A program made the translations under genes and the position numbers. Shown one piece after another: positions 3,846 to 62,995 of a stretch of 64,000 nucleotides of DNA. Location of the stretch: NCBI GenBank assembly GCA_964349765.1, contig CAYGGZ010000002.1, forward strand, positions 99,151 through 163,150, given 5' to 3'. This stretch comes from an uncultured Bacteroidales bacterium. Lineage in GTDB: Bacteria > Bacteroidota > Bacteroidia > Bacteroidales > JAAYJT01. The number at the start of each line of letters is the position of its first letter. The first letter of the stretch is position 1. Below the pieces are notes generated by a model. The model worked only from the letters and a program-made list of their open reading frames with translations. It did not search any database and was not told the origin of the DNA.

Positions 3846-5048
3846 TTATACTTTTTCCAATGCAACAGCAATACCTTGACCAACACCGATGCACATTGTA
3901 CACAAGGCTTTGCTAAGGCCTAATTGTTGAAGCTGGTTGATTGCAGTGGTAACGAGCCGTGCTCCGCTCATCCCGAGTGGATGCCCAAGGGCAATAGCAC
4001 CACCCCAACGGTTTACTCTCGGATCGTTGTCGGCAAGGCCAAACTCACGGATACAGGCCAGCGCCTGAGCAGAGAATGCTTCGTTGATCTCTATGACATC
4101 CAGATTATCCAGTGTAAGCTTCAGGCGGTCCAGCAGCTTGTATGTTGCAGGAACCGGCCCCATACCCATGATGCGGGGTTGAACACCTGCAACCGCCATC
4201 CCAAGAAAGCGGGCGGAAGGTGTTAGGTTGTATTTTTTTAGAGCAGCTTCTGAGGCAAGTATCATCGCCGAAGCGCCGTCGTTAACTCCAGAGGCATTGC
4301 CTGCTGTAACTGTGCCATTGTTTCCAACAATCGGTTTCAGTGCGGCGAGCTGCGGAAGCGAGGTGCGGCGAGGGTGTTCATCGGTGTTCACAAATAATGG
4401 TTCGCCCTTTCGTTGTGGAATCTCAACCGAAACAATCTCATTATTAAAATAATTTAACTGTTGCGCTGCAAAGGCTTTTTCCTGACTATGAAACGCAAAG
4501 CTGTCCTGATCCTCACGGTTGATGCCGAAATCGGCTGCAATGTTTTCGGCGGTTTCAATCATTGACTCAGCTCCATATTGCCGTTCGAGGAGCTTATTCA
4601 CAAACCTCCAGCCCATCGTGGTGTCGTACATTTTAATGTTGCGAGAGAATGCTTGTTCGCTTTTATCCAGAACAAACGGAGCCCTCGACATACTTTCTAT
4701 TCCCCCGGCGATAATCAGACCGGCTTCCGCCGATCGAATCGCACGCGCGGCAGTTCCAACGGCATCCATGCCCGAACCACATAGCCTGTTTATTGTAGAG
4801 CCAGGGACAGTTTCAGGTAAACCCGCAAGGAGCAAAGCCATCCGGGCAACATTGCGATTGTCTTCTCCCGCCTGATTAGCGCAGCCCATCAATACATCAT
4901 CTACCATCGTCCAATCAATGCCGGGATTACGTTCTACGAGCGCCCGAAGAACGATTGCAGCTAAATCATCGGTTCGCACCGAAGAAAGCGAGCCTCCATA
5001 CTTTCCAATTGGAGTTCGTACAGCATCGCAGATAAACACTTCATTCAT
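3846..5048 (-). CDS. Acetyl-CoA C-acyltransferase (3-ketoacyl-CoA thiolase)
   Basis: The 400-aa product has the thiolase motifs [11 protein letters not shown] (active-site Cys), [21 protein letters not shown] and CIGVGQGIA. It is the last gene of the minus-strand cluster. Confidence 0.92.
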
Positions 5049-5060
5049 TGCACGAAAATA

Positions 5061-6407
5061 TTAGTTGAACTTATCGAGCATTGGTTTTACATGACGAAAT
5101 CCGCTGAGCATAGCATCGGACAGCATGTCTACCTCTTTTTGTGTTACCATTGTTGAAAACACGCAGGAGCACGAATTTACGATCATCACTCCATTTTCGT
5201 AAAGGTGGTCGATAAAGGCATTAACGATTTTTTTTGTCTGCTCATCTTCATATCCATCGCGATACGACAGCGGAGGCGTTTGGCGGAAATGCACCTTAAA
5301 CAATGACCCCCCTCCGGTGAGGCAAACCGGAACATCGGCTGTTTTAACTGCTTCTTCAATCTGTTTACGAGCCTTTGCAGTTGTTTCGTTGATCTTCAGC
5401 ACTGCCTTGCGATCGAAAAGTTCGAGGGCAACCTTTCCTGCAGCCATTGAAACGGGATTTGCGGAGAAGGTTCCTGAAAGAGGAAACCGGAATTTGGAGC
5501 TTCTCGGATCAAGAACTTCCATCACATCGTTTCGTCCGGCAAAAGCCCCGATAGGAAACCCGCCACCAATTAATTTGCCCATGGAGGTAAGATCAGGTTT
5601 TTGAGGGTAATCCTGCTGTGCGCCTTCGTAGTTTACCCGAAAGCAAATAACCTCGTCGAAGCACAGTAGAACATTGTTTTGGCGGGTCCAATCGAAAACT
5701 GCACTTATAAATTCCTGTGAAGCAGGAATCAAACCAATTCTGTGAGGAACCGGATCGATTAATACACATGCCAGTTCAGATGCATGCCTGTTGAGAATAT
5801 TAATGGTTCGTTCAACATCGTTGAAAGGGAAAATCACTACATCGTTTAAAACGCCCTGCGGTGTGCCATGAACAAGTGGAACGCTTTGGGGCTGGTTTAG
5901 ATCGCCCCAGTTTACGGGAGTAGAAGATTGGCTCACCTCCGCAACATCATAGCTGCCGTGGTATGCTCCTTCGGCCTTAGCTATCTTGGGTTTGCCTGTA
6001 AAAGCACGGGCAGTCTTGATCATAGCCATTACGGCTTCGGTACCGGAATTCACAAAACGTATTTTATCGAATCCTGGAACGCGGTTGCAAAGCAATTTGG
6101 CAAGGTCAATTTCTATTTCCGATGCAAGAGTAAATGCAGTGCCTCTGGAAATTTGTTCGCATGCGGCCGAAACAATTGCCGGGTGAGCGTGTCCGTGAAT
6201 GAGCGATGCGATATTGTTTGCAAAGTCAACACGCTTTACTCCATGAATGTCAGTAACATAACAGCCTTCAGCATGAGAAACGTAATGCGGATGCGGCTTC
6301 CGGAAATGAACGTTGCGGCTGATTCCGCCAGAGAGCACTTTGCATGCTTCGCTGTAAATACTCTCGTCGGTTTTTAGATCGGTTTGTGTTTTATAGTTTG
6401 TTTGCAT
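5061..6407 (-). CDS. Class III (GSAM-like) PLP aminotransferase; candidate beta-amino-acid aminotransferase
   Basis: The 448-aa product has GTEAVMAMIKTAR, AYHGS, FDEVICFRV and the PLP-lysine context MGKLIGGGFPIGAF, as in the glutamate-1-semialdehyde aminomutase-like branch. Only the gene context suggests a beta-amino-acid role. Confidence 0.8.
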   Translation of the reverse strand: MQTNYKTQTDLKTDESIYSEACKVLSGGISRNVHFRKPHPHYVSHAEGCYVTDIHGVKRVDFANNIASLIHGHAHPAIVSAACEQISRGTAFTLASEIEIDLAKLLCNRVPGFDKIRFVNSGTEAVMAMIKTARAFTGKPKIAKAEGAYHGSYDVAEVSQSSTPVNWGDLNQPQSVPLVHGTPQGVLNDVVIFPFNDVERTINILNRHASELACVLIDPVPHRIGLIPASQEFISAVFDWTRQNNVLLCFDEVICFRVNYEGAQQDYPQKPDLTSMGKLIGGGFPIGAFAGRNDVMEVLDPRSSKFRFPLSGTFSANPVSMAAGKVALELFDRKAVLKINETTAKARKQIEEAVKTADVPVCLTGGGSLFKVHFRQTPPLSYRDGYEDEQTKKIVNAFIDHLYENGVMIVNSCSCVFSTMVTQKEVDMLSDAMLSGFRHVKPMLDKFN

Positions 6408-6432
6408 GCTTTTCAGAATTTCATTGAACTAA

Positions 6433-7083
6433 CTAATACTGATTTAGTTTCACGGCAGTGCGTTGTTGCAGGAGTTCAAAATTAACACCCGGGGCCAGTT
6501 CACGAACGAAAAGTCCTTTTGATGTAACATCTATTATGGCGTAGTCGGTGTAGATGCGGTCAACTACTTGTTTGCCTGTGAGCGGATAAGTGCATTGCTC
6601 CACTATTTTTGAGTCGCCATTTTTTGTTGTGTGTTGTGTGATCACAAAAATAGTTTTTACTCCTTCAACCAGGTCCATTGCACCTCCCACAGCAGGGATA
6701 GCGCCTGGTTCTCCGGTACTCCAGTTTGCGAGGTCGCCTTTTCCGGAAACCTGAAACGCCCCCAAAACACAAATGTCGATATGTCCGCCGCGAACCATTG
6801 CAAAACTGTCGGCATGATGAAAGAAGCAAGCTCCCTCAATTGCGGTTACGGGTTTTTTACCGGCATTTATCAGTTCGTCGTCTTCCATTCCTGGTTGGGG
6901 CGAAGGACCAACCCCAAGGAGTCCGTTTTCGGTGTGAAAAATTACTTCCCTTCCTTGAGGAATATAATTTGCTACGAGCTCAGGCATTCCAATACCGAGG
7001 TTCACATAGGCGCCGTTGGGAATATCTTCGGCTATTTTCTGAGCCATTTGTTCGCGGGTCCATCCAATATCTTCGGCTTTCAT
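6433..7083 (-). CDS. 3-oxoacid CoA-transferase subunit B
   Basis: The 216-aa product has the ...VIFHTENGLLGVGP... ((S)ENG catalytic Glu motif). It overlaps subunit A by 4 nt. Confidence 0.9.
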   Translation of the reverse strand: MKAEDIGWTREQMAQKIAEDIPNGAYVNLGIGMPELVANYIPQGREVIFHTENGLLGVGPSPQPGMEDDELINAGKKPVTAIEGACFFHHADSFAMVRGGHIDICVLGAFQVSGKGDLANWSTGEPGAIPAVGGAMDLVEGVKTIFVITQHTTKNGDSKIVEQCTYPLTGKQVVDRIYTDYAIIDVTSKGLFVRELAPGVNFELLQQRTAVKLNQY

Positions 7084-13420: not shown

Positions 13421-14884
13421 ATGCCATCTACTTCAAAAATACACCTCAGGCTTATAATTAAAATTCTTGGGATCTTTCTCATGATTTTAGGTGTGTTGAT
13501 GCTGACATCTCTTATATTCGCCTATCTGTATGATGATGGTAACGCGGCAAGCATCCTTCTCTCTGGTAGCATCACAATTTCGTGCGGCTTGCTGTTGTTT
13601 ATTTTCACTAAAAACGCCGACCTTCAGGAAGTTAGTAAACGCGACGGTTTTGTGATCGTTAGCGCTACATGGATTGTAATTTCTCTGTTCGGAACGCTTC
13701 CATTTATCCTATCCGGAGCAGTTGATAACTTTACTGATGCATTCTTCGAAACGATGTCGGGTTTTACTACGACCGGTGCTACAATCCTACCCGATATTGA
13801 AGCGGTTGATAAAAGTATCCTCTATTGGCGTAGCCTTACACAATGGATCGGAGGCATGGGAATAATAGTGTTATCATTGGCCATTTTACCGATATTAGGC
13901 ATTGGAGGCATGCAGCTTTTTATTGCAGAGGTTCCAGGCCCAACAAAGGAAAAACTCCATCCGCGCGTAACCGAAACAGCTAAATTTCTTTGGGGAATTT
14001 ATGTTTTACTTACGGCAATACAAACATTACTCCTCGTGGCTGGCGGAATGAGTTTTTTTGAAGCACTGTGCCATGCATTCACTACGATGTCAACCGGAGG
14101 TTTCTCGACTCAGAACGAAAGCATTGCCGCATTTTCTCCTTATATTCAATATGTTACTATTTTCTTCATGTTCCTTGCAGGAACCAGCTTTGTTGTGCTT
14201 TACTATATTATGCACCTGAGGATAAAAAAAGTATTCGGCAGCGAAGAGTTTCGGACATATTTCCTCATAATCGTAGCAGCAGCGCTTTTCATCACTGTTT
14301 CATTGGTTCTGACCTCTGATTTAAAGTTCGGCCGGGCTTTTCGTGATGCATTGTTTCAAACCGTTTCAATTATTACTACTACAGGCTTTATTACAGCCGA
14401 TTATTTGCAATGGAGCCCGTTTTTATGGTTTCTCGTTTTTCTGCTTATGTTTACGGGAGGCTGCGCCGGGTCAACTGGTGGCGGTATTAAGATTGTTCGC
14501 CAGCTACTACTTTTTAAAAACAGCCGTCTCGAAATGCGCCGGATCATTCATCCCCAGGCAATTGTCCCTGTCCGACTGAATGGAAAAGCCATCCCTGAAA
14601 CAATCATTTATAATGTGCTTGCATTTTTCATCATCTATATACTCATCTTTGTTTTTGCCTCCCTGTTCATGTCGTTTCTGGGATTGGATTTTGAAACTGC
14701 AGTAGGCTCCGTGGCAGCCTCAATCGGAAATATCGGCCCTGGGATCGGCAAAGTTGGGCCTATTCACAACTACGACTTTATTCCTGATGCCGGAAAATGG
14801 ATGTTAGGCCTTGTAATGTTATTGGGAAGACTTGAATTGTTTACCGTACTCGTTTTGTTTTCATTCAACTTTTGGAAAAAGTAA
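13421..14884 (+). CDS. trkH: TrkH-family potassium transporter (copy 1)
   Basis: The 487-aa polytopic protein has FFETMSGFTTTGATIL, WIGGMGIIV, STGGFST and GGCAGSTGGGIK selectivity-filter-like repeats. Confidence 0.9.
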   Translation: MPSTSKIHLRLIIKILGIFLMILGVLMLTSLIFAYLYDDGNAASILLSGSITISCGLLLFIFTKNADLQEVSKRDGFVIVSATWIVISLFGTLPFILSGAVDNFTDAFFETMSGFTTTGATILPDIEAVDKSILYWRSLTQWIGGMGIIVLSLAILPILGIGGMQLFIAEVPGPTKEKLHPRVTETAKFLWGIYVLLTAIQTLLLVAGGMSFFEALCHAFTTMSTGGFSTQNESIAAFSPYIQYVTIFFMFLAGTSFVVLYYIMHLRIKKVFGSEEFRTYFLIIVAAALFITVSLVLTSDLKFGRAFRDALFQTVSIITTTGFITADYLQWSPFLWFLVFLLMFTGGCAGSTGGGIKIVRQLLLFKNSRLEMRRIIHPQAIVPVRLNGKAIPETIIYNVLAFFIIYILIFVFASLFMSFLGLDFETAVGSVAASIGNIGPGIGKVGPIHNYDFIPDAGKWMLGLVMLLGRLELFTVLVLFSFNFWKK

Positions 14885-16344
14885 GAGTGCATTCTGTGAT
14901 CAATTACCAGATCGTCCTGAAAGTAACAAGCTTACTTATCGTTATTATTGCATTGTTTATTTTCGCATGCCTGCCAGTATCATTACTCACAGGCGGTGAC
15001 GATTTTATTTCCCTTGCCATCTCAGCATTCATAACAGCAGCCATCGGAGGAACAATATGGATGCTAACCGGCAAATTCAATTCCAATGCTATTGGCAAAA
15101 AAGAGGCGTATCTGATTGTGGTCGTTACCTGGCTGAGCATGGTTTTTTTTGGCAGTTTACCATACTTAATCAGCGGTACGATACCAAATCTTACCGACGC
15201 ATTCTTTGAATCCATGTCGGGATTTACTACAACCGGCGCCTCAATATTAACCGACATCGAAGCCGTGTCTGAGGGAATTTTATTCTGGAGAAGCCTCACT
15301 CACTGGATCGGAGGAATGGGAATCATTGTTTTTTCAGTGGCCATATTGTCGCTTTTCGGCATCGGAGGAATACAGCTTTTTCTGGCCGAAGTGCCCGGTC
15401 CGTCAAAAGAAAAGCTTCACCCTCGAATCAAACAAACAGCCCTTCGACTATGGGGCATATATGTACTTTTAACCCTGATGCAAACACTACTGCTTGTTGC
15501 GGGCAATATGACACTCTACGATGCTGTTACTCATTCATTTTCTACAATTTCTACAGGAGGGTTCTCAACCCGCAACGCAAGTATGGGGGCGTTTTCTGCC
15601 TATGCCCAATATGTTACAATCGTTTTCATGATTTTATCAGGCACAAACTTTACTCTTCATTACTTGCTGTTGAACCGGCGTTGGAAGCAGGTAATCGCCG
15701 ACGAGGAGCTAAGGATGTACCTTGGAATAATCATAATCTCTACATTGGTAATCGCTCTCTTTCTCGTTCATAATGGATATGGAACAACCGAAAAATCATT
15801 CCGTGATGCACTGTTCCAGGTAACTACAATCATGACATGTACCGGATTCGCAACCGCCGATTTCATGCAATGGCCAGTATTCTGCTGGTTTTTACTTTTT
15901 TTGTTAATGCTGGTTGGAGGTTGTGCCGGAAGCACCGCTGGAGGAATTAAGGTGATACGGCATCTGTTGCTTCTGAAAGGCCTCAGGAACGAATTCAGGG
16001 GGCTGATGCACCCTTCCGCATACCTGCCGCTACAGTACAATGGTCATACGGTTGGAGAAAACATACACAGAAACATTCTGGCAATTTTCATACTTTATTT
16101 GCTCACTTTTACCATCGGTTCATTTCTTTTGACACTCAGCGGCCTCGACCATATTACAGCCATGGGTTCAGTGGCTCAGGCAATGGGAAATATCGGGGTT
16201 GGGCTGGCAGCAACAGGCCCTGCTTCTAACTTTGCGGAGATAAGTGTGGCAGCGAAATGGACCCTGTCATGTCTGATGTTGATCGGAAGATTAGAAATAT
16301 TAACCGTTTTTGTGCTCTTTAGTAAAGCCTTTTATAAAAAATAA
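14872..16344 (+). CDS. trkH: TrkH-family potassium transporter (copy 2, tandem paralog)
   Basis: The 490-aa product carries the same motif set (FFESMSGFTTTGASIL, WIGGMGIIV, STGGFST, GGCAGSTAGGIK). The start is uncertain: TTG 14872 overlaps the copy-1 stop, and GTG 14887 is an alternative. Confidence 0.88.
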   Translation: MEKVRVHSVINYQIVLKVTSLLIVIIALFIFACLPVSLLTGGDDFISLAISAFITAAIGGTIWMLTGKFNSNAIGKKEAYLIVVVTWLSMVFFGSLPYLISGTIPNLTDAFFESMSGFTTTGASILTDIEAVSEGILFWRSLTHWIGGMGIIVFSVAILSLFGIGGIQLFLAEVPGPSKEKLHPRIKQTALRLWGIYVLLTLMQTLLLVAGNMTLYDAVTHSFSTISTGGFSTRNASMGAFSAYAQYVTIVFMILSGTNFTLHYLLLNRRWKQVIADEELRMYLGIIIISTLVIALFLVHNGYGTTEKSFRDALFQVTTIMTCTGFATADFMQWPVFCWFLLFLLMLVGGCAGSTAGGIKVIRHLLLLKGLRNEFRGLMHPSAYLPLQYNGHTVGENIHRNILAIFILYLLTFTIGSFLLTLSGLDHITAMGSVAQAMGNIGVGLAATGPASNFAEISVAAKWTLSCLMLIGRLEILTVFVLFSKAFYKK

Positions 16345-16345
16345 A

Positions 16346-16437
16346 CCCGAATTTAATCAAGAGAAAATCCGTTAGGACCGAACTATTGGTTCTATGAGTG
16401 CATACCCGATCATGCATTGTCAAATGCTTAATCGGGG
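16346..16437 (+). repeat. Intergenic structured repeat, copy C (diverged, short 3' hairpin)
   Basis: The sequence is cccgaatttaatcaagagaaaatccgttaggaccgaactattggttctatgagtgcatacccgatcatgcattgtcaaatgcttaatcgggg. It is colinear with the 123-bp element at 23543 and 25728. It fills the gap between the convergent trkH-2 and T9SS-cargo stops. Confidence 0.7.
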
Positions 16438-16442
16438 TTAAA

Positions 16443-17372
16443 TTATCGTACTACTACCACCCTTGCCGTTAGCTTTTGCTTCCCCAGTAGTACTTCGAGA
16501 ATAAAAATACCCGGCGGAAGCGAAATTACATCCAATTCAAATCTTTCCACACCACCAGGAACATTTTTACTGATCAACTCCCTACCCGTTAGCGAAAGTA
16601 ATCTTAATAAAGCGCTTTCCTGTGTAACTGAAGGAAAAACGACGGTTAGCCCCGAGCTGGCCGGGTTCGGAAAGATTGTCAGCAAACCTTTATCGTTTTC
16701 ACCAATGCTGGTCACTCCATAATAATAACAATCAGGAAACTGCGGGCTGTGGTAAATTAATGCCGATTGATGGCTGAAGCAAGATAGTGTTAATGCATCC
16801 GGAAACTCCTGATTAAATAGTTTGGCCGTTATTGGAAACAATGGTCCATGAACGCTGCCAATGCCTTCAATCCAGGTTTCTTTCATACTCGTGTTGTAAT
16901 AAACCACAGGCGAAAAATTAAACCGACGGCGGTACTGCCCGTCTATCACCACACTGTCAATTGATTGAAGAAAAAGATCGTAGTGTGCTCCACAACAAAA
17001 CTGATAAAACTTCACCGTGTCGCCCGGTTGTATATTGAAATCATACATCACCGTTGGGTGAATCTGGCCATCGCTCATGAAATAAACAACTCCATTAGCT
17101 GCGTACACATGCCCCCTGAAGATGTTCGACGGATCGCCAGGTACAAACACCGAAGTATTGTTCTCATAAATTCTGCTCCACAACTGATTATCAATCAATG
17201 TATCGCCATCGTATGAATAGGTCCAGGTTACCAGACCAGAACCAGGGGGATTGCCCGGCAGCGGGTACTCCTGCACAACCATCCAATTAGCATCCGACAC
17301 AGGAAAAGCTATCCCCTGAGCTACAGAAGCCACACCATGAAGCGTAAATAAGAATGAAAATATGATTCTCAT
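16443..17372 (-). CDS. Secreted protein with T9SS (Por) C-terminal sorting domain
   Basis: There is an N-terminal signal peptide (MRIIFSFLFTLHGVASVAQG). The C-terminus ...LTIFPNPASSGLTVVF...LLSLTGRELIS...LPPGIFILEVLL...VVVVR matches the type A T9SS CTD pattern. Confidence 0.8.
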   Translation of the reverse strand: MRIIFSFLFTLHGVASVAQGIAFPVSDANWMVVQEYPLPGNPPGSGLVTWTYSYDGDTLIDNQLWSRIYENNTSVFVPGDPSNIFRGHVYAANGVVYFMSDGQIHPTVMYDFNIQPGDTVKFYQFCCGAHYDLFLQSIDSVVIDGQYRRRFNFSPVVYYNTSMKETWIEGIGSVHGPLFPITAKLFNQEFPDALTLSCFSHQSALIYHSPQFPDCYYYGVTSIGENDKGLLTIFPNPASSGLTVVFPSVTQESALLRLLSLTGRELISKNVPGGVERFELDVISLPPGIFILEVLLGKQKLTARVVVVR

Positions 17373-21763: not shown

Positions 21764-23489
21764 TGAGCGCATTGATTGCCTCATTCTCAGGAATATTGCT
21801 CCTAACCAGCCTTTTACCTGCATACAAACTTACCTTCCCTCTGCCCTGCCCGATATAACCATAATCTGCATCAGCCATTTCGCCCGGACCATTAACAATA
21901 CACCCCATAACTGCAATCTTTATCCCCTTGAGGTGTGCAGTAGCACTTTTTACTCTTTCGAGCGTTCCTTCGAGATCATAGCGGGTACGACCGCAGCCCG
22001 GACAGGCAATGTATTCGTTTTGCGTAGTCCGCAAACGGCAAGCCTGTAATATAGCAAAGGCAACCCGCGTGATAGTGTCTTGATTTAACTCAGGATTAAT
22101 TAGATACAGTCCATCGCCTTGTCCGTTGTTGAGTAGTGGAGCAGTGCCAAGCGCAGAAACGATTGCAAAGTCAGCAGCATCAGTATATGTATTGCTGTGC
22201 GATACGATTACAGGCAAACGACAGCTTAAACTATCAAGTTCCGAAATCAGTTTTCTGGCAGCGCTAACTTCTGAAGCCGTATCTGCCCTCATAATCAGCA
22301 CTTCACTGCTCCGGCCTTGATGAACATGGTTAAAAACCAGATTTTTTTTGTCGCTCAGTGTGTCCACCATCAAGTAGTTGATTCCTTCGGTAGAGCTGTT
22401 TCTTTTATAGAATTTTTCAGTGTCAGTCAACATTCCATGATTGCCTTCGTTGTTTCCGTTTTCATCCACGCTCCATAACTCCATGTTCCCGCGTAGGACT
22501 ACAGGAACATTGTTGTTTCCAATTGTACCAGTAATACGGGAGAGCCGTCGTTCGGGCATCACAACCGGATTACCCTTTTCATCAGCCGGCCAACAAATTT
22601 CCGTTTTGAGTGGTTTTGGGTAGAACCTTGTAATAGTTTTTGCGACATGAATCTCATTTTCAGGTGGTTCGGTAAGTGATACTCTTATTGTGTCGCCAAT
22701 TCCTTCGGATAGCAATGTTCCAATTCCAGCAGCCGATTTGATACGCCCTTCGATTCCGTTGCCCGCCTCGGTAACGCCCAGATGAAGCGGATACATCAAA
22801 CTCTCCTGCACCATTTTATTAACCAGCAACCTTGTTGAGGCTATCTTCACCCTAACATTACTCGATTTCATTGAAAGTATTAGCTGATGAAACCCAAACG
22901 CAGCACAAATCCTTACAAACTCCATGGCTGATTCGGCCATACCTTCAATAGTATCGCCATAGCGATGCATGATCCGTCCCGACAGTGAACCATGGTTGGT
23001 TCCGATACGGATAGCTGTTCCATGCTCTTGGCAAACTTTTAGTAAAGGATAAAGACGTTCGGCAACCCTCTCAAGTTCCTCAGAATATTGTTTGTTCGTG
23101 AACGACCTTACAGAGGTTTCTCTTTTATCGGCATAATTTCCGGGGTTAATGCGAACCTGTTCTACTATCCGTGCGGCTTCAATGGCAGCGTCGGGGTTAA
23201 AGTGAATATCGGCGCTGAGTGGTAAGGAGTAACCGGCGTTATGCAACTCCTTCCTGATGGCTTGTAGTTGCTTAGCCTCACGAACACCTTGTGCCGTGAT
23301 GCGAACCAACTCGCAACCGGCATTTGCCAGCCTGATACATTGCGAAACAGTGGAAACCGTGTTCATAGTATCGGTGTTGGTCATGCTTTCGATCCTAATA
23401 GGAAAGCCGTTCCCGAGCAATAACTCTCCAACCCGTACCACACGGGGTTTCCACAAAAACGAAATATTAGCTGAGGATTGCGGGTGCAT
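21732..23489 (-). CDS. ispG: 4-hydroxy-3-methylbut-2-en-1-yl diphosphate synthase (long form with insert domain)
   Basis: The 585-aa product has ...FPIRIESMTNTDT..., ...GVTEAGNG... and C-terminal ...YIACPGCGRT...GCIVNGPGE. A large central insert is as in Bacteroidota/plant-type IspG. Confidence 0.93.
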   Translation of the reverse strand: MHPQSSANISFLWKPRVVRVGELLLGNGFPIRIESMTNTDTMNTVSTVSQCIRLANAGCELVRITAQGVREAKQLQAIRKELHNAGYSLPLSADIHFNPDAAIEAARIVEQVRINPGNYADKRETSVRSFTNKQYSEELERVAERLYPLLKVCQEHGTAIRIGTNHGSLSGRIMHRYGDTIEGMAESAMEFVRICAAFGFHQLILSMKSSNVRVKIASTRLLVNKMVQESLMYPLHLGVTEAGNGIEGRIKSAAGIGTLLSEGIGDTIRVSLTEPPENEIHVAKTITRFYPKPLKTEICWPADEKGNPVVMPERRLSRITGTIGNNNVPVVLRGNMELWSVDENGNNEGNHGMLTDTEKFYKRNSSTEGINYLMVDTLSDKKNLVFNHVHQGRSSEVLIMRADTASEVSAARKLISELDSLSCRLPVIVSHSNTYTDAADFAIVSALGTAPLLNNGQGDGLYLINPELNQDTITRVAFAILQACRLRTTQNEYIACPGCGRTRYDLEGTLERVKSATAHLKGIKIAVMGCIVNGPGEMADADYGYIGQGRGKVSLYAGKRLVRSNIPENEAINALITLIEEQSSR

Positions 23490-23542
23490 AGCGTTGTATT
23501 ATCTCAATCCTGCAAAAATAATGATCTTTGAGATCATAAAAT

Positions 23543-23665
23543 TTTATCCCGAATTAATCAATAGAAAGTCCGTTAGGGCTGAACTATTGATTCCATGAGG
23601 GTAATCCCGATTTAGTGTTTGTTTAGTGCAATTTTTATTGTGCTAATTACAAACACTTAATCGGG
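23543..23665 (+). repeat. Intergenic structured repeat, copy A (123 bp, identical to copy B); left boundary of the island
   Basis: I compared it base by base with 25728-25850 and found 123/123 identical. It contains a 5' hairpin (aatcaatag 23556-23564 / ctattgatt 23584-23592). It also has a long 3' hairpin (cccgatttagtgtttgt 23606-23622 / acaaacacttaatcggg 23649-23665) with a nested hairpin in its loop. Confidence 0.9.
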
Positions 23666-23994
23666 ATTAAAAGGCAGTTTACTAATTCATAGCCCAAAAT
23701 CTGGTTCTCATTTCTGCCTTCCGGTACTATGCTCACACGCCACAGACACGAATTTGAACGGCTTGCCGGCTACCTGTTCCGGAAACTCAGAAAAGCTTTC
23801 GGTAACCATCAGGATGGCCGTAATAATGTTACGGAACAAGGGTTTTTCCGCTTCATTGCGCCTCCATTTCAAGAGTGTGTGTTAGCAGAATTCCAGTAAG
23901 ATTCGGCAAAATGTTGAAAAAACTTCAAAAATTCCACTTAATTGTTCAACATTGGAAATTATATTTATATATTTGGTTCAGATTTCAACCGCCT

Positions 23995-24465
23995 ATGTTT
24001 AGCGTTCAAAAAATATGGCACTGCGAGGCTTACCTTACCGGTATCTTTTTGGGTTTTGATGAAGGTTTGAAGCAAATCGTAAAGAAAACCAGTGCCCTAT
24101 GGAGCCGCACTCACTGGAGTTGGTATTTGGACTATAATGCAGAAAGTTGCAGTAAAATCAAAGAAGTATTTCCTGATCATCGGGTTGTTAAAAATTCGAA
24201 AGACAAGACTCCAGTGCCTGCTGTGATGCAAAACCTGCTTGAAGCATGGGACGGCCTCAGATTCATACAAGCTTTACCCGGACACAGCAGTATCAAGACC
24301 ACTACCATCTATGCCCATCTCACAAAAAAAAAGTTTACAGAAAGGATAATCAGCTCGTTAGGTCGGCTAATGGAAGAACTGAACACTTCAAAAAACACTG
24401 AAAAGTGTCTGGTTCGTAAAGATATTTACTATATACCACTAATGCTGTCGGACAGCGCAATTTGA
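23995..24465 (+). pseudogene. Tyrosine recombinase/integrase remnant with internal deletion
   Basis: The N-terminal segment ...FLGFDEGLKQIVKKTSALWSRTHWSWYLDYNAESCSKIKEVF resembles the N-terminal domain of Bacteroidota integrases. It joins directly to the extreme C-terminal motif ...LRFIQALPGHSSIKTTTIYAHLTKKKF (the LGHssikTTeiYtH Tyr motif). The roughly 250-aa catalytic core between them is missing. Confidence 0.6.
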
Positions 24466-24513
24466 TACAGACGAACATTTAATGAATTAATCGAAACTAA
24501 AAAAATAAAGACG

Positions 24514-25623
24514 ATGGACTTTAAAGACTACATTAAGCAAATTGGTGAAAGAGTTGTAAAACTAAAGGACCAAATCCAGACAGAGGAAGCAACAAAGAAT
24601 GCGTTTATCATGCCGTTTTTACAAGCTTTGGGTTACGACGTTTTCAATCCACTCGAAGTTGTTCCCGAATACACAACTGACATTGGTACAAAAAAAGGAG
24701 AGAAAATCGACTATGCAATTTTTAAAGACGGTATCCCTACAATACTGGTCGAGTGCAAACATTGGGCTCAAAACCTAAATTTGCACGACGGACAGCTTTT
24801 ACGCTACTTCCATGTTTCTAAAGCAAAATTTGGACTTTTGACAAATGGCATAAATTACCGCTTTTACTCCGACTTGGTTGAACGAAACAAAATGGATGAA
24901 AAACCTTTCTTGGAGTTTAACATCTACGAGATAAAAGACAACCAAATTGAAGAACTCAAAAAGTTTCACAAAACAATATTTGATGCCGAAAGCATCGTAA
25001 ATACAGCAAGCGAATTAAAATACATAAATGAACTTAAACAGCTTTTCCAACAGGAATTGACAAATCCTTCGCCAGAGTTTGCAAAACATTTTGCACGTCA
25101 GGTTTATCCAACTTCAGTAACAGCAAAAGTATTAGAGCAATTTACGACGTTGACAAAGAGGTCAATGCAACAATATATCAGCGATTTAATCACTGAACGC
25201 CTAAAAACGGCATTGACAAAGGAAGACGAAGCAACCAAGGAGCAAGAAGTTAATCGAGCAGAGCAAGCAAAAGTTGAAGAGAGCAAAATTGTTACGACCC
25301 AAGACGAAATGGAAGGTTTTATGATTGTTAAAGCAATTCTGCGCCAAAAGATAAGCGTAACCAGAATTGCATTCAGGGACTCACAATCATATTTTTCAAT
25401 TCTGCTTGACGACAACAAACGCAAGACAATCTGCAGGCTTTATCTATACGGCAGCAAAAAATATTTGGCGACTCTTGACGATCAAAAGAAGGAAATCAAA
25501 AACGAGATTTCAAATCTGGACGACATTTTCAAATTCTCTGCAACACTTTTAAAAGTTGTTGAGAACTACGACCGTTCTATACTAGAGCCTAACGGACAAA
25601 AGAGCACTACTGTCAAGAAATAG
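24514..25623 (+). CDS. HsdR_N-type (type I restriction enzyme R N-terminal, PD-(D/E)xK) nuclease-domain protein
   Basis: The N-terminus is ...EEATKNAFIMPFLQALGYDVFNPLEVVPEY...GEKIDYAIFKDGIPTILVECKHW...QLLRYF...KFGLLTNGINYRFY, the D...(E)xK core typical of HsdR_N domain proteins. A charged coiled linker and a C-terminal domain I cannot assign follow. The gene looks AT-rich by eye. Confidence 0.7.
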   Translation: MDFKDYIKQIGERVVKLKDQIQTEEATKNAFIMPFLQALGYDVFNPLEVVPEYTTDIGTKKGEKIDYAIFKDGIPTILVECKHWAQNLNLHDGQLLRYFHVSKAKFGLLTNGINYRFYSDLVERNKMDEKPFLEFNIYEIKDNQIEELKKFHKTIFDAESIVNTASELKYINELKQLFQQELTNPSPEFAKHFARQVYPTSVTAKVLEQFTTLTKRSMQQYISDLITERLKTALTKEDEATKEQEVNRAEQAKVEESKIVTTQDEMEGFMIVKAILRQKISVTRIAFRDSQSYFSILLDDNKRKTICRLYLYGSKKYLATLDDQKKEIKNEISNLDDIFKFSATLLKVVENYDRSILEPNGQKSTTVKK

Positions 25624-25702
25624 GACTCTAAGCGGTCAGAGCAACCATGCGATAAATAGGTGTTGAACTACACCCACCAGGTTACTGGCTATTTGCTATC
25701 GG

Positions 25703-25727
25703 GCTGATTACAAACACTTATTCGGGG
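25703..25727 (+). repeat. Partial repeat unit (3' end only) abutting copy B head-to-tail
   Basis: ctgattacaaacacttattcgggg matches the last ~24 nt of the unit (ctaattacaaacacttaatcgggg) with 2 mismatches. It is followed directly by the start of copy B. Confidence 0.6.
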
Positions 25728-25850
25728 TTTATCCCGAATTAATCAATAGAAAGTCCGTTAGGGCTGAACTATTGATTCCATGAGGGTAATCCCGATTTAG
25801 TGTTTGTTTAGTGCAATTTTTATTGTGCTAATTACAAACACTTAATCGGG
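25728..25850 (+). repeat. Intergenic structured repeat, copy B (123 bp, identical to copy A); right boundary of the island
   Basis: It is identical to 23543-23665. The following gtttatc (25851-25857) resembles the first bases of another unit. Confidence 0.9.
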
Positions 25851-25899
25851 GTTTATCTAATCTGTAAAAATTTTTCTTGACTTGCACATCAAACTATAT

Positions 25900-25907
25900 T
25901 AATTTTG
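25900..25907 (+). promoter_or_regulatory. Candidate -7 promoter motif TAatTTTG
   Basis: TAnnTTTG match 34 nt upstream of ATG 25941. Confidence 0.4.
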
Positions 25908-25940
25908 CATTAATCTGTATTTCCCTTAAACCTAAAAAAA

Positions 25941-27008
25941 ATGGTCATGAAAAACAAAATCATTTATTTGGTAATCACAATAATAGCAGTTTCTATGCTA
26001 GTGATTGCCTGCAAGAAGGATGAAATTCAGGAATTCACTGCTGAGGAGGCAAAAGTTGAGATTCGCTCAGCGAATCAACAAATCCAGAATGACATGGATG
26101 AAATGATGGCCACCGAAGCAGCCACATCCTTAAATTCTCTGATGAACCTGCTAAACGCCCCCGATGACTGGAAGTCTTCGCTGAAATCTCCTCAATCACC
26201 GCTAAAACAGTTGAATGTTGCTGGAATCAGCAGGTTCCTGCGAAACAACTTCCCGGCGGACTTAACAACCAAAAACTCACAGGAAGGCGGCTTGCTTGTG
26301 TATGATTTTGATTCTGCGTATTTTATTCTTGTTGAACCCAGGGAGGATTTGGTATTCCTTTATCCTGCCGACGATAATGCATACGCCAACAGACAAAACA
26401 ACGCAGAATTGACTATAGCTGATCTTCAAATTATTGAAATCGAATATACTGATGAATATGGCACCTATTATGAGCCGGTTCCTGTAAACGCTGTGGTAAC
26501 GCTAAAGGTTGACAATCAAACAGTAATGACTTTAAATTACACTGCAACATTCAACAACGAAGGTCTGCCACTTACAATGACCATTGACATGAATATGGCT
26601 CCATACCGGTTTACACTTAACTTTTCAGGCAGCGGAGCAACGTACACCTCAGTAATGAGCTTCACCAAAGGAAATGAGAAACTGATGGGCTATGACCTCA
26701 CCATCACATACAGTGCAAATATGGAGCTTATCAATAAAGCAACTGGAACAATTGACTTAGTTCCATTGCGGCTAAAGGGCGATGTTAAACCTGAATTACT
26801 GGAAAACTGCCCCGAAAACGATATAATTTGCATGAATAACAACATTAATCTTCAGCTTATTCACACAGGCGAAAATAAAATTATCGGCGATATTGAGTTC
26901 AGAATCTATTATGATGATGAATGGGACGAAGAATATCCTGAACCAGTAATCGTGTATTCCGACGGAACATGGGAATATTTCTTCAATATTTTCGATGCGC
27001 CAGTGTAA
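25941..27008 (+). CDS. Hypothetical lipoprotein (paralog 1)
   Basis: It has a signal peptide with a lipobox (...VSMLVIAC KKDE). I recognise no family, and it shows weak colinear similarity to the product of 28024-29016. Confidence 0.6.
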   Translation: MVMKNKIIYLVITIIAVSMLVIACKKDEIQEFTAEEAKVEIRSANQQIQNDMDEMMATEAATSLNSLMNLLNAPDDWKSSLKSPQSPLKQLNVAGISRFLRNNFPADLTTKNSQEGGLLVYDFDSAYFILVEPREDLVFLYPADDNAYANRQNNAELTIADLQIIEIEYTDEYGTYYEPVPVNAVVTLKVDNQTVMTLNYTATFNNEGLPLTMTIDMNMAPYRFTLNFSGSGATYTSVMSFTKGNEKLMGYDLTITYSANMELINKATGTIDLVPLRLKGDVKPELLENCPENDIICMNNNINLQLIHTGENKIIGDIEFRIYYDDEWDEEYPEPVIVYSDGTWEYFFNIFDAPV

Positions 27009-41367: not shown

Positions 41368-41503
41368 TTATCCTCGTTATTTTATCTGAACAGCCTCAGT
41401 TTTAATCCCTTGTTTATATTAAAAATCTTTTGAGCGGTTTAATTGCAAACCTACAAAAAAATGGTTCGTAATAATTTTTACTGCAAAAATGCAGAAATAG
41501 ATT

Positions 41504-41562
41504 AACCCAGACGTACTTAATAGTTCTGCACTAACGGTCTTTTAATTGATTAATCCGGGTTT
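41504..41562 (-). repeat. Intergenic structured repeat, copy E (5' module only, diverged, minus orientation)
   Basis: The reverse complement aaacccggattaatcaattaaaagaccgttagtgcagaactattaagtacgtctgggtt aligns colinearly with the first ~60 nt of the 123-bp unit. It lies 35 nt downstream of the minus-strand O-methyltransferase stop. Confidence 0.5.
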
Positions 41563-41597
41563 AACTGTCAGTGGTAACCGGGTGCAAAGCAAAATTG

Positions 41598-42239
41598 TCA
41601 TTTTTTTCTGATAAGCATTATTCCGTCGCGTAACGGAAGAATCAGGTTTTCGCACCTGGAATCTTTCCTGACATGGTTATTAAACTTGCGAATGCAAAGG
41701 GTATCTTTATCGTCGTCGAATGCGGGGTCTGTAACTTTGCCGTGCCACAACACATTGTCGGCAATGATAAAGCCTCCGGGGCGCAACAAAGGAATTATCA
41801 ATTCATAAAGCTCCACATACAACTCTTTGGCAGCATCAAGATAAACCAGGTCGAACAATTGTGTGAATTTTGGAAGGAGTTGCAATGCATCGCCGCAGTG
41901 CCATACAATTTGGTTGCTCAAACCGGCGAGCCTGAAATATCGTTTAGAAATTTCCTCAAGTTCGGGGTTGATGTCGATTGTGTGCAGTTTTCCGTCGGGT
42001 TTTAAGCCAGAAGCAAGGCAAATGGCAGAGTATCCGGTGAAGGTCCCGATCTCAAGAATCATGTCAGGGTTTAACATCTTGCTGATCATTCGCAGAAGAC
42101 TTCCCTGAATGTGGCCAGCTAACATTTGCGGGGATACGGTTGTGAGCCATGTTTCACGGCTTAATTTGCTGAGTACCTCTGGCTCAGGCGAAGAGTGTTC
42201 GAAAATGTATTTAATGGCGCTATTCTCTGCTTCTTGCAT
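41598..42239 (-). CDS. Class I SAM-dependent O-methyltransferase (caffeoyl-CoA OMT-like)
   Basis: ...ILEIGTFTGYSAICLA...VYLDAAKELY...GGFIIADNVLWHGKV... matches the Methyltransf_3 pattern. Confidence 0.85.
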   Translation of the reverse strand: MQEAENSAIKYIFEHSSPEPEVLSKLSRETWLTTVSPQMLAGHIQGSLLRMISKMLNPDMILEIGTFTGYSAICLASGLKPDGKLHTIDINPELEEISKRYFRLAGLSNQIVWHCGDALQLLPKFTQLFDLVYLDAAKELYVELYELIIPLLRPGGFIIADNVLWHGKVTDPAFDDDKDTLCIRKFNNHVRKDSRCENLILPLRDGIMLIRKK

Positions 42240-62859: not shown

Positions 62860-62897
62860 AAAACTTTCCCGATAATACATCATTACATATCTGAAAA

Positions 62898-62995
62898 GCT
62901 GAACTATTGATTCCATGAGGGTAACACCGATTTGGTGTTTGTTTGGCGCAATTCCTAATGTGCTGATTACAAACACTTAATCGCGGATTAAGTGT
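62898..62995 (+). repeat. Intergenic structured repeat, copy D (3' module plus part of the 5' module)
   Basis: gctgaactattgattccatgagggtaacaccgatttggtgtttgtttggcgcaattcctaatgtgctgattacaaacacttaatcgcgg aligns with unit positions ~36-123, with about 10 substitutions. An extra perfect hairpin follows (acacttaat cgcgg attaagtgt, 62973-62995). It lies between the convergent TonB-receptor and dtd stops. Confidence 0.75.

Follow-up and report, generated by a model that had tools for sequence, protein, structure and literature searches.

To our knowledge, MITEs have barely been described in the phylum Bacteroidota. Composites that are bounded by two MITE copies and flanked by 5-bp direct repeats are documented, and in some of them the two copies are directly oriented (PMC13367494). 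MITESen1 composites occupy a site at which other plasmids hold one MITE copy, and the routes suggested for MITE-bounded units include transposition in trans as well as a circle recombining with a MITE that is already in place (PMC13367494). Here, we compare these units with a locus in a 64-kb stretch of DNA from an uncultured Bacteroidales bacterium (hereafter the window), in which a block of ~2.3 kb, comprising a disrupted integrase gene, a fragment of the housekeeping gene nnr and one intact nuclease gene, is bounded by repeats. The first-pass annotation interpreted the repeats as attL and attR of a decayed integrative island. The features of the window that are relevant to the origin of the block are as follows.

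16340 to 16444, plus strand: family copy D, with a short second hairpin, filling the gap of two convergent genes
23543 to 23547, no strand: left flanking pentanucleotide TTTAT, one of three copies
23548 to 23666, plus strand: body of copy A, CCCGAATTAATC...CTTAATCGGGA, a two-hairpin element, then TTAAA
23695 to 23800, plus strand: relic of the 3'-part of nnr/YjeF (NAD(P)H-hydrate dehydratase/repair gene), from pairwise L025 matches
23908 to 23997, plus strand: integrase upstream (promoter/leader) region, homologous to L025 4550-4639
23998 to 24221, plus strand: N-terminal domain of the integrase remnant (aa 1-76; full protein ~587 aa)
24222 to 24405, plus strand: integrase remnant, last ~60 residues (..LRFIQALPGHSSIKTTTIYAHLT..)
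24395 to 24440, plus strand: ~45 nt conserved after the integrase stop, AAACACTGAAAAGTG.C..GTT..T..GATATTTACTA
24462 to 25623, plus strand: HsdR_N endonuclease module with an intact gene (24514-25623, 369 aa)
25681 to 25727, plus strand: remnant X (...GCTGATTACAAACACTTATTCGGGG), the right end of a further repeat copy that differs from A and B
25728 to 25732, no strand: TTTAT separating X from copy B
25733 to 25851, plus strand: body of copy B, 118/119 identical to A
25852 to 25856, no strand: right flanking pentanucleotide TTTAT
41500 to 41567, minus strand: degenerate family copy E (nhmmer 41519-41567; to 41500 by eye)
62860 to 62994, plus strand: family copy C, 72% to A, between convergent genes

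Copies A and B form a 126-nt direct repeat (23543-23668 and 25728-25853) with a single mismatch, A at 23666 versus G at 25851. The identity of 23543-23665 and 25728-25850 over the first 123 nt, which had been read by eye, is thereby confirmed by a computed alignment. A partial extra unit had also been noted at 25703-25727. This unit exists but is longer than reported: local alignment and nhmmer identify the right-hand ~45 nt of the repeat unit at about 25681-25727, abutting copy B, and place this remnant (X) closer to other members of the repeat family than to A or B. Scanning the region for promoters and terminators yielded nothing exceeding the shuffled expectation.

The evidence for an empty site comes from one related genome of a different species, L017, in which ispG and the lipoprotein gene (75% identical to the lipoprotein of the window) are adjacent, without the island and without the repeat. 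In an alignment, the left flank of the window, a single TTTAT and the right flank are collinear with the intergenic region of L017, which joins the two flanks exactly at the repeat borders. Since L017 lacks both the island and the repeat, the whole repeat-bounded block (23548-25856) represents a genuine insertion between ispG and the lipoprotein gene, which are divergently oriented. Insertion by way of repeats, which is most likely here, is an ordinary event. The first-pass annotation proposed to look for an empty site with a single repeat copy, but L017 carries zero copies and only TTTAT. All nine contigs that encode an identical HsdR_N protein share the ispG context or break at the repeats, and none of them reveals another site at which the composite has inserted. 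Likewise, contigs of the same strain, retrieved by exact-protein lookup with hsdR_N, the lipoprotein and ispG, have the same layout or are broken inside the repeats and are therefore uninformative on polymorphism.

The interior of the block is compositionally foreign. Its GC content is 0.389 and that of hsdR_N is 0.374, compared to a window mean of 0.437, which substantiates the impression that the cargo gene is more AT-rich than its surroundings. The suggested GC and k-mer comparison finds the interior at the 3.7th percentile of 2-kb windows for GC and at the 99.4th percentile for tetranucleotide distance. The cargo gene was correctly recognized as an intact nuclease gene of the HsdR_N type: its product matches PF04313 (E 1.5e-16, 61.3 bits versus a gathering score of 25.1) and, over its full length, PHROG 4225 "endonuclease" (E 5e-131), while no PADLOC model matched the HsdR_N protein. 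Over 24462/24505-25579, the module shares 81-84% DNA identity with genes found in unrelated contexts. Of the three other contexts inspected, two are defence islands in which near-identical relatives of the gene reside.

The tyrosine integrase, ~330 bp from the left repeat, is internally deleted as the first-pass annotation had stated. Window positions 23908-24221 correspond to L025 4550-4866 (79%) and positions 24221-24431 to L025 6211-6433 (76%), with a single clean deletion of 1,344 bp relative to L025 and its junction at 24221. The deletion covers L025 residues 77-523 and removes the first Arg through the HxxR motif. The R-K-H-R-H/W-Y set is incomplete, as only the C-terminal ..GHSS..Y stretch is left and most catalytic residues are missing. 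The remnant scores 20.6 bits against PF00589, below the Pfam cut-off of 27.1, and has drifted at conserved positions, too. Its original stop is gone and the frame continues to 24465. The ~45 nt following the integrase are common to the window, L025, L015 and L028. Because the integrase is deleted and drifted while the repeats are perfect, we infer that the repeats are probably younger than the death of the integrase.

A word-indexed homologue search with the integrase remnant returned 3 matches only, and the intact relatives were reached via an exhaustive representative search and a metagenome scan; a scan of viral contigs with the N-terminal domain found no relative. The relatives of the integrase are intact in L025 and L016, GIY-YIG-interrupted in L015 and decayed in L026 and L028. 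The suggestion that relatives of the integrase might sit beside the same repeat does not hold in the DNA available, as nhmmer and blastn detected the repeat in none of these five loci (flanks short in three). Furthermore, neither the window nor the integrase loci contain tRNA genes as att targets. For P0135 and P0136, which are intact relatives, the best-scoring models are those of integron integrases and XerA. Against the integron-integrase model TIGR02249, the two proteins reach 213-218 bits, below the curated cut-off of 265. Decayed copies of such large (~590 aa) integron-integrase/Xer-like recombinases are common in these metagenomes.

Upstream of the integrase, 23695-23770 matches residues 363-387 of the Nnr protein of L025 with 68% aa identity (tblastn E 2.5e-6, blastn E 1.6e-7). 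The match of 23778-23800 to the Nnr C-terminus is weak and non-significant alone (E 0.52) and would imply an internal loss of ~315 bp in the relic. The relic is too short for a Pfam score, and its identity is based on the pairwise matches to L025. The 55-codon minus-strand frame at 23708-23872 listed in the first-pass annotation is present; it has no family match and runs antisense to this plus-strand relic. In L025, nnr is the chromosomal gene directly upstream of the intact integrase, and the island keeps the same nnr-to-int order. A second nnr 3' end, sought as a possible part of the element, is not found within 10.9 kb in L025. As the nnr relic resides within the island and nnr precedes the integrase in L025, a boundary made by the integrase would be expected between nnr and int, inside the island, and not at the repeats.

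The bracketing repeat is a dispersed, two-hairpin, MITE/REP-like element. Its assignment to a dispersed family is upheld by six copies or remnants in the window, where the right-arm 20-mer occurs 8 times at ≤3 mismatches (0.01 expected). The family is also represented in four other Bacteroidales and Prolixibacteraceae MAGs. Of the six matches there, three are located at the end of the retrieved stretch (for L024, this is clearly the end of a contig), a hint that the repeats are multi-copy and break assemblies. Family copies are mostly located downstream of genes in sense orientation, as is copy E relative to the gene at 41598-42239, and the solitary copies C and D lie between convergent genes with no integrase nearby. 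The element is small (about 95-125 nt) and non-coding, with variable apical stems, a modular make-up and inverted termini CCCGAATTAA / TTAATCGGGG. The terminal inverted repeats span about 11-13 nt (left CCCGAATTAATC, right CTTAATCGGGG), and a third copy of the motif is internal. The plus strand folds with -57.5 kcal/mol (z = -10) and the minus strand with -44.8 kcal/mol. Compensatory changes are in excess, with 15 pairs altered on both sides versus 6.4 +/- 1.8 in shuffles. No match in the window reaches the gathering score in Rfam 15, and 23400-26000 gives only chance hairpins (E >= 0.046). Searching the window for either terminal motif revealed no further copy, and neither a transposase nor an autonomous element carrying such termini came to light; we know of no cognate transposon for the family.

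Of the three TTTAT copies, one precedes A, one separates X from B and one follows B. The unit from A to X and copy B therefore each have matching TTTAT flanks, whereas A alone is mismatched (TTTAT versus TTAAA). For other copies, the left and right pentamers are TTAAA/TTAAA (L022), ATAAA/TTAAA (D) and TTAAA/TTAAT (E), the latter two agreeing at 4/5 positions. In this small sample of AT-rich pentamers, the TTTAT pattern resembles 5-bp target duplications. TTTAT is present once at the empty site of L017 and also precedes the L021 copy; because of this latter occurrence, the AT-rich pentamers and the AT-rich intergenic DNA, some of the "duplication" may belong to the element itself or have arisen by chance.

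The best reading of the block, which we hold tentatively and at slightly less than an even chance, is a MITE-bounded composite similar to TIME-COMPs that carries a decayed island fragment. Rather than the resident integrase, the mobility machinery of the repeat family, operating in trans, is the most likely agent. The cargo would be a decayed fragment of a foreign island of the type "nnr - large tyrosine integrase - cargo", and the unit from copy A to X, with left and right family termini, might have moved as a composite transposon. The solitary copy B would represent a second insertion into the same TTTAT, with either order of the two events conceivable, and each insertion would have duplicated TTTAT. 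One of the near-identical copies A and B may have been copied recently from the other, or both may have been homogenised later. Transposition, its two-step order and a transposase supplied in trans are inferred from this arrangement, and two independent insertions at one pentanucleotide would need a strong site preference. A replicative-cointegrate model was considered and rejected: it explains the identical copies, but the TTTAT at the donor flank must then be a coincidence. The structure-keeping covariation and the mostly sense orientation after genes would be equally compatible with spread of a REP-like or RNA element by another route.

A Campbell-type capture is possible, though we regard it as rather unlikely. 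Here, a circle with a repeat copy and nnr'-int'-hsdR_N would have crossed over into a resident copy at TTTAT by RecA-type recombination across ~120 nt of identity, leaving two direct hybrid copies. The direct orientation and the 123-nt identity are expected from a single crossover, two parents that were not quite the same could explain the lone A/G difference at the last position of the body, and the second step would proceed without a transposase. The same model has been proposed for directly oriented MITESen1 composites (PMC13367494). However, a single-repeat allele is not observed, as L017 has no copy and the same-species contigs have the full structure or are broken at the repeats. In addition, the copy on the circle must have been preceded by X and TTTAT, the pentamer also found beside the resident copy, an unexplained coincidence unless the circle derived from the same locus. 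Capture of the segment by recombination between repeat copies was the second option of the first-pass annotation. It comes close to the reading that we favour, to which homologous recombination between repeat copies is a live rival.

Site-specific integration, in which the integrase inserted a circular element into an existing repeat copy and decayed afterwards, is improbable as an explanation of the repeats. It would account for the position of the integrase remnant close to the left repeat and for direct repeats flanking a foreign segment. Integron integrases and XerA are enzymes able to use folded or structured sites, and the resemblance of the integrase relatives to these models, combined with the strong hairpins of the repeat, fits this explanation as well. 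However, the integrase is catalytically gutted, and no repeat copy is present at the empty site of L017 or in the available DNA of the five loci with integrase relatives. The relic of the donor chromosome's nnr lies within the island, although a boundary made by the integrase should exclude genes of the former host. The scores of the relatives stay under the integron-integrase cut-off, the ends of the repeat, compared by eye, show no consistent agreement with the attC core sites RYYYAAC/GTTRRRY, and solitary copies between convergent genes have no integrase in the vicinity. Finally, the apparent pentanucleotide flank duplications suggest transposition and not a 123-bp att site. Hence, the main claim of the first-pass annotation is not sustained. 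It is very unlikely that nnr, integrase and hsdR_N are ancestral at this locus and were lost in the L017 lineage, with the repeats as later REP-like insertions or a local duplication. The single outgroup genome and the several internal deletions, which show an eroding region, are compatible with such a history, yet the loss in L017 would have to be a base-precise excision including both repeats, the interior is atypical for the window, and the HsdR_N module has close DNA relatives in unrelated contexts. We attach an equally small probability to the view that the repeat is not a conventional MITE but a structure-dependent mobile or recombination module with two hairpins maintained by compensatory change. 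The better fold of its plus strand hints at a single-strand substrate. On this view, the element would be handled as folded single-stranded DNA like attC or IS200/IS605 ends, could carry cargo and might partner the ~590-aa integron-integrase/Xer-like recombinases.

For annotation, the locus illustrates that an integrase beside one of two long direct repeats is insufficient for an attL/attR call, as the relic integrase is a passenger here and the repeats come from a dispersed family that is unrelated to it. Genomic islands bounded by attL and attR share with the block a foreign segment that has an integrase gene close to one of its ends and is enclosed by direct repeats. They differ in that the repeats here form a dispersed family unrelated to the other loci of the integrase, a host-gene relic lies inside and the empty site is without repeat. 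Integron attC sites such as the 123-126-nt repeats of Vibrio cholerae are similar in length, are imperfect palindromes as well, and have a conserved structure and variable sequence. The integrase relatives score best against integron-integrase models, yet remain under the family cut-off. An integron cassette/attC reading was rejected by eye, given no consistent R'', GTTRRRY only in some copies (D, L023), no array next to an intact integrase and scattered solitary copies.

REP/BIME, ERIC, Correia/NEMIS, BOX and RUP repeats are likewise short, multi-copy and strongly hairpin-forming. They, too, are mostly located in gaps after genes or between convergent genes and are modular with variable apical stems. 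In contrast to these, neither a RAYT-type gene nor any other partner was observed here, and the apparent flank duplications and the empty site point to cut-or-copy insertion. The repeat has no sequence similarity to any Rfam family, and its compensatory hairpin upkeep is not a usual trait of MITEs. The closest parallels are TIME-COMPs, integron mobilization units and units bounded by MITESen1 or TIME244, in which two small non-coding inverted-repeat copies bracket cargo of 1 to >10 kb including truncated genes and the unit is flanked by 5-bp direct repeats, as appears to be the case here. Tn3-type inverted repeats begin with GGGG. The termini of the repeat are CCCG...CGGGG (CCCG/CCCC from the outside inward) and not GGGG...CCCC, and its identity as a TIME, a Tn3-derived MITE, was rejected on this basis. 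Furthermore, the cargo unit ends on the right in a 45-nt remnant to which an additional, complete copy is joined, the unit resides on the chromosome of an uncultured Bacteroidales bacterium, and its cargo is not a resistance gene. An uncharacterised structured repeat of uncultured Bacteroidales is apparently able to bracket and relocate genes, in this case an intact HsdR_N-type endonuclease gene, and if the flank duplications hold genome-wide, it would be a non-Tn3 addition to the few known MITE-bounded composites.

The whole block between ispG and the lipoprotein gene, both repeats included, is an insertion as judged by sequence comparison with L017, the sole outgroup genome. On this related contig, ispG and the lipoprotein gene (homologue 75% identical) are adjacent and divergent, and both island and repeat are absent. 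The left flank, one TTTAT and the right flank of the window are collinear with the L017 intergenic region. Furthermore, the GC and k-mer check proposed in the first-pass annotation sets the interior apart, with a GC of 0.389 (3.7th percentile of 2-kb windows) and a tetranucleotide distance at the 99.4th percentile. Gene adjacency, collinear flanks and atypical composition thus jointly indicate insertion of the entire block relative to L017. The predicted empty site with a single repeat copy was not found, as the L017 site lacks the repeat. What was inserted is a decayed island fragment with a structured repeat at its boundaries; the insertion is real and well delimited.

Sequence reading and a repeat finder identify direct repeats of 126 nt that differ at a single position (23543-23668 versus 25728-25853), and the repeat finder bears out the claimed identity of the first 123 nt. 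The repeat is a member of a dispersed family: its right-arm 20-mer occurs eight times in the window at ≤3 mismatches (0.01 expected), and a profile built from nine copies and searched across the window matches six copies or remnants.

Repeat copies and the intact gene of the island
23539-23673: repeat copy A
25728-25855: repeat copy B
62860-62994: repeat copy C, solitary, fills the gap between convergent genes
16340-16444: repeat copy D, solitary, fills the gap between convergent genes
25691-25731: X, right-end remnant of the repeat; local alignment extends its start to ~25681
41519-41567, minus strand: degenerate repeat copy E, just 3' of a gene, in sense orientation
24514-25623: intact HsdR_N gene (Pfam PF04313, E 1.5e-16)

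X accounts for the partial extra unit noted earlier beside copy B and resembles A and B less closely than it does the rest of the family. Elsewhere in the window, a 250-nt direct repeat of 73% identity (13731-13980 and 15191-15440, spaced 1,460 bp), accompanied by two shorter co-spaced matches, probably represents two paralogous genes in tandem.

Each repeat unit contains two hairpins. The folding energy of copy A is -57.5 kcal/mol versus -22.4 ± 3.5 in shuffles (z = -10), while its minus strand folds less well (-44.8 kcal/mol). Among the nine copies compared, the core GAACTATTGATTCCATGAGGGTAA hardly changes, and the apical stems vary by compensatory changes, with 84% of cells paired (29-41% in slid controls) and 15 pairs changed on both sides versus 6.4 ± 1.8 in shuffles, none of 500 of which reaches 15. 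The termini are inverted (left CCCGAATTAA, right TTAATCGGGG), and no Rfam family matches the repeat. A conserved-core scan of one genome per species found six further copies, spread over four MAGs of Bacteroidales or Prolixibacteraceae. Three of the copies lie where the retrieved sequence ends (L024 clearly at a contig end), which hints at repeats that break assemblies. In copies L022:2466-2624 and L023:2715-2837, a small additional hairpin (..ATTTAAGCATTTTCTAATGCTTAAT..) immediately precedes the right terminus; hence, the repeat is modular.

Left of the integrase, 23695-23770 on the plus strand matches the gene immediately upstream of an intact 587-aa integrase relative on metagenome contig L025 (blastn E 1.6e-7; tblastn 68% over 25 aa, E 2.5e-6), which encodes a bifunctional Nnr with YjeF_N and Carb_kinase domains. 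The 55-codon minus-strand frame described earlier is present and, given this plus-strand match, is the antisense of an nnr relic. In L025, nnr has a host-like GC of 0.53-0.57, compared with 0.41-0.50 in the integrase region and 0.28-0.36 in the cargo. Between nnr and the integrase, L025:3140-4330 holds two direct repeats, spaced 799 bp and with 98% identity across 300 nt or more (~390 nt by eye), which are rich in small palindromes, are unrelated to the window's repeat and could be the real attachment or arm region of that integrase. The very AT-rich downstream cargo (L025:6480-8070, GC 0.28-0.34) carries genes for a pentapeptide-repeat protein and for a methyltransferase of the rRNA adenine dimethylase (RrnaAD) family, families that number Qnr- and Erm-type resistance proteins among their members.

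Alignment to L025 in two blocks (23908-24221 to 4550-4866 at 79%; 24221-24431 to 6211-6433 at 76%) resolves the reported internal deletion of the window integrase as one clean loss of 1,344 bp at 24221. The remnant retains residues 1-76 and roughly 60 at the C-terminal end; the span that runs from the first catalytic Arg to the HxxR motif, both included, is gone. Moreover, conserved positions have drifted (HWSWYL versus HRCWYL in relatives; PGHSS versus LGHSS). Full-length relatives (555-606 aa) have a ~300-aa N-terminal extension with three WS..CWY-like repeats (by eye), followed by Phage_int_SAM_4 and Phage_integrase domains, and in NCBIfam they score highest with the integron-integrase model (213-218 bits, under the cut-off of 265). 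Conservation extends for about 45 nt 3' of the stop codon in the window, L025, L015 and L028.

Metagenomes hold numerous further copies of the integrase that are decayed or carry internal deletions. Three diverged metagenome proteins, P0002, P0142 and P0146 (L028:265-597), have an identical deletion junction (..FGFDETLEK|PLEAAGLQK..), so a 'mini-integrase' relic with a fixed junction has persisted or spread, separate from the window's deletion. In L015:299-2396, an 87-aa GIY-YIG ORF (1823-2086), which may be a homing-endonuclease-type insertion into a recombinase gene, separates the N-terminal 490-506 aa of a near-intact relative from its C-terminal 121 aa. Another intact integrase of the family, of 581 aa, is preceded by about four tandem ~58-nt units (..AAAAAGTATAACAGGGAGGGTAAAAGTCCTATCGGTTTT..; L016:60-240), and at L026:97-1999 a decayed N-domain copy (159 aa) directly precedes a different, intact 463-aa tyrosine recombinase with a similar WS..W N-terminal domain. 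The short-read contig L004 (Logan ERR3094288, 1,734 bp, six samples) ends at ~23973, inside the island and not at the repeat; this may mark a variant, or a further repeat boundary close to the AT-rich sequence that precedes the integrase remnant.

The HsdR_N gene is intact, as claimed, and its protein is a full-length match to PHROG 4225 'endonuclease' (E 5e-131). It has at least 8,000 relatives, the best 120 being 80-89% identical in protein, and is unusually uniform among the relatives listed. At the DNA level it shares 81-84% identity with copies found in three unrelated contexts: adjoining a STING-type CBASS operon (L013), adjoining a type I restriction system and an Abi gene (L014), and alone between housekeeping genes (L029/L030). 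Homology to L013, L014 and L029 is confined to 24462/24505-25579, ending within ~50 nt of the gene, which looks like a frequently transferred single-gene module without visible mobility features.

The first-pass annotation read the repeats as an attL/attR pair made by the integrase. This reading is not borne out, for four reasons: the empty site in L017 lacks the repeat, five loci with integrase relatives also lack it within the sequence compared, the former host's nnr gene lies inside the island, and the integrase is long dead yet the repeats are perfect. The flanks point instead to the repeat family as the agent. TTTAT occurs at 23543-23547, 25728-25732 and 25852-25856, so that the segment from A to X and copy B are each flanked by it on both sides, whereas A alone lies between TTTAT (left) and TTAAA (right). 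In other copies the left and right pentamers, likewise AT-rich, also match: TTAAA/TTAAA (L022), ATAAA/TTAAA (D) and TTAAA/TTAAT (E). This pattern of putative 5-bp target duplications suggests two insertions at one pentanucleotide.

We tentatively rank first a transposition by a putative transposase of the repeat family. One insertion would be a composite with A's left terminus and X's right terminus as its ends, and the other, at the same pentanucleotide, would be the lone copy B. Recent copying, or else homogenisation at a later stage, would explain why A and B are almost identical. Ranked second, and somewhat less likely, is homologous recombination of a circle with one repeat copy into a resident copy, a route described for MITE circles (PMC13367494).

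The block is of modest interest in itself; its greater use is to urge care in calling att sites and to draw attention to a Bacteroidales repeat family that is so far undescribed. It is best filed with MITE-bounded composites, for which 5-bp flanking repeats are documented (PMC13367494); the block in the window, a putative composite seen at one site only, may resemble these in its TTTAT pentamers.
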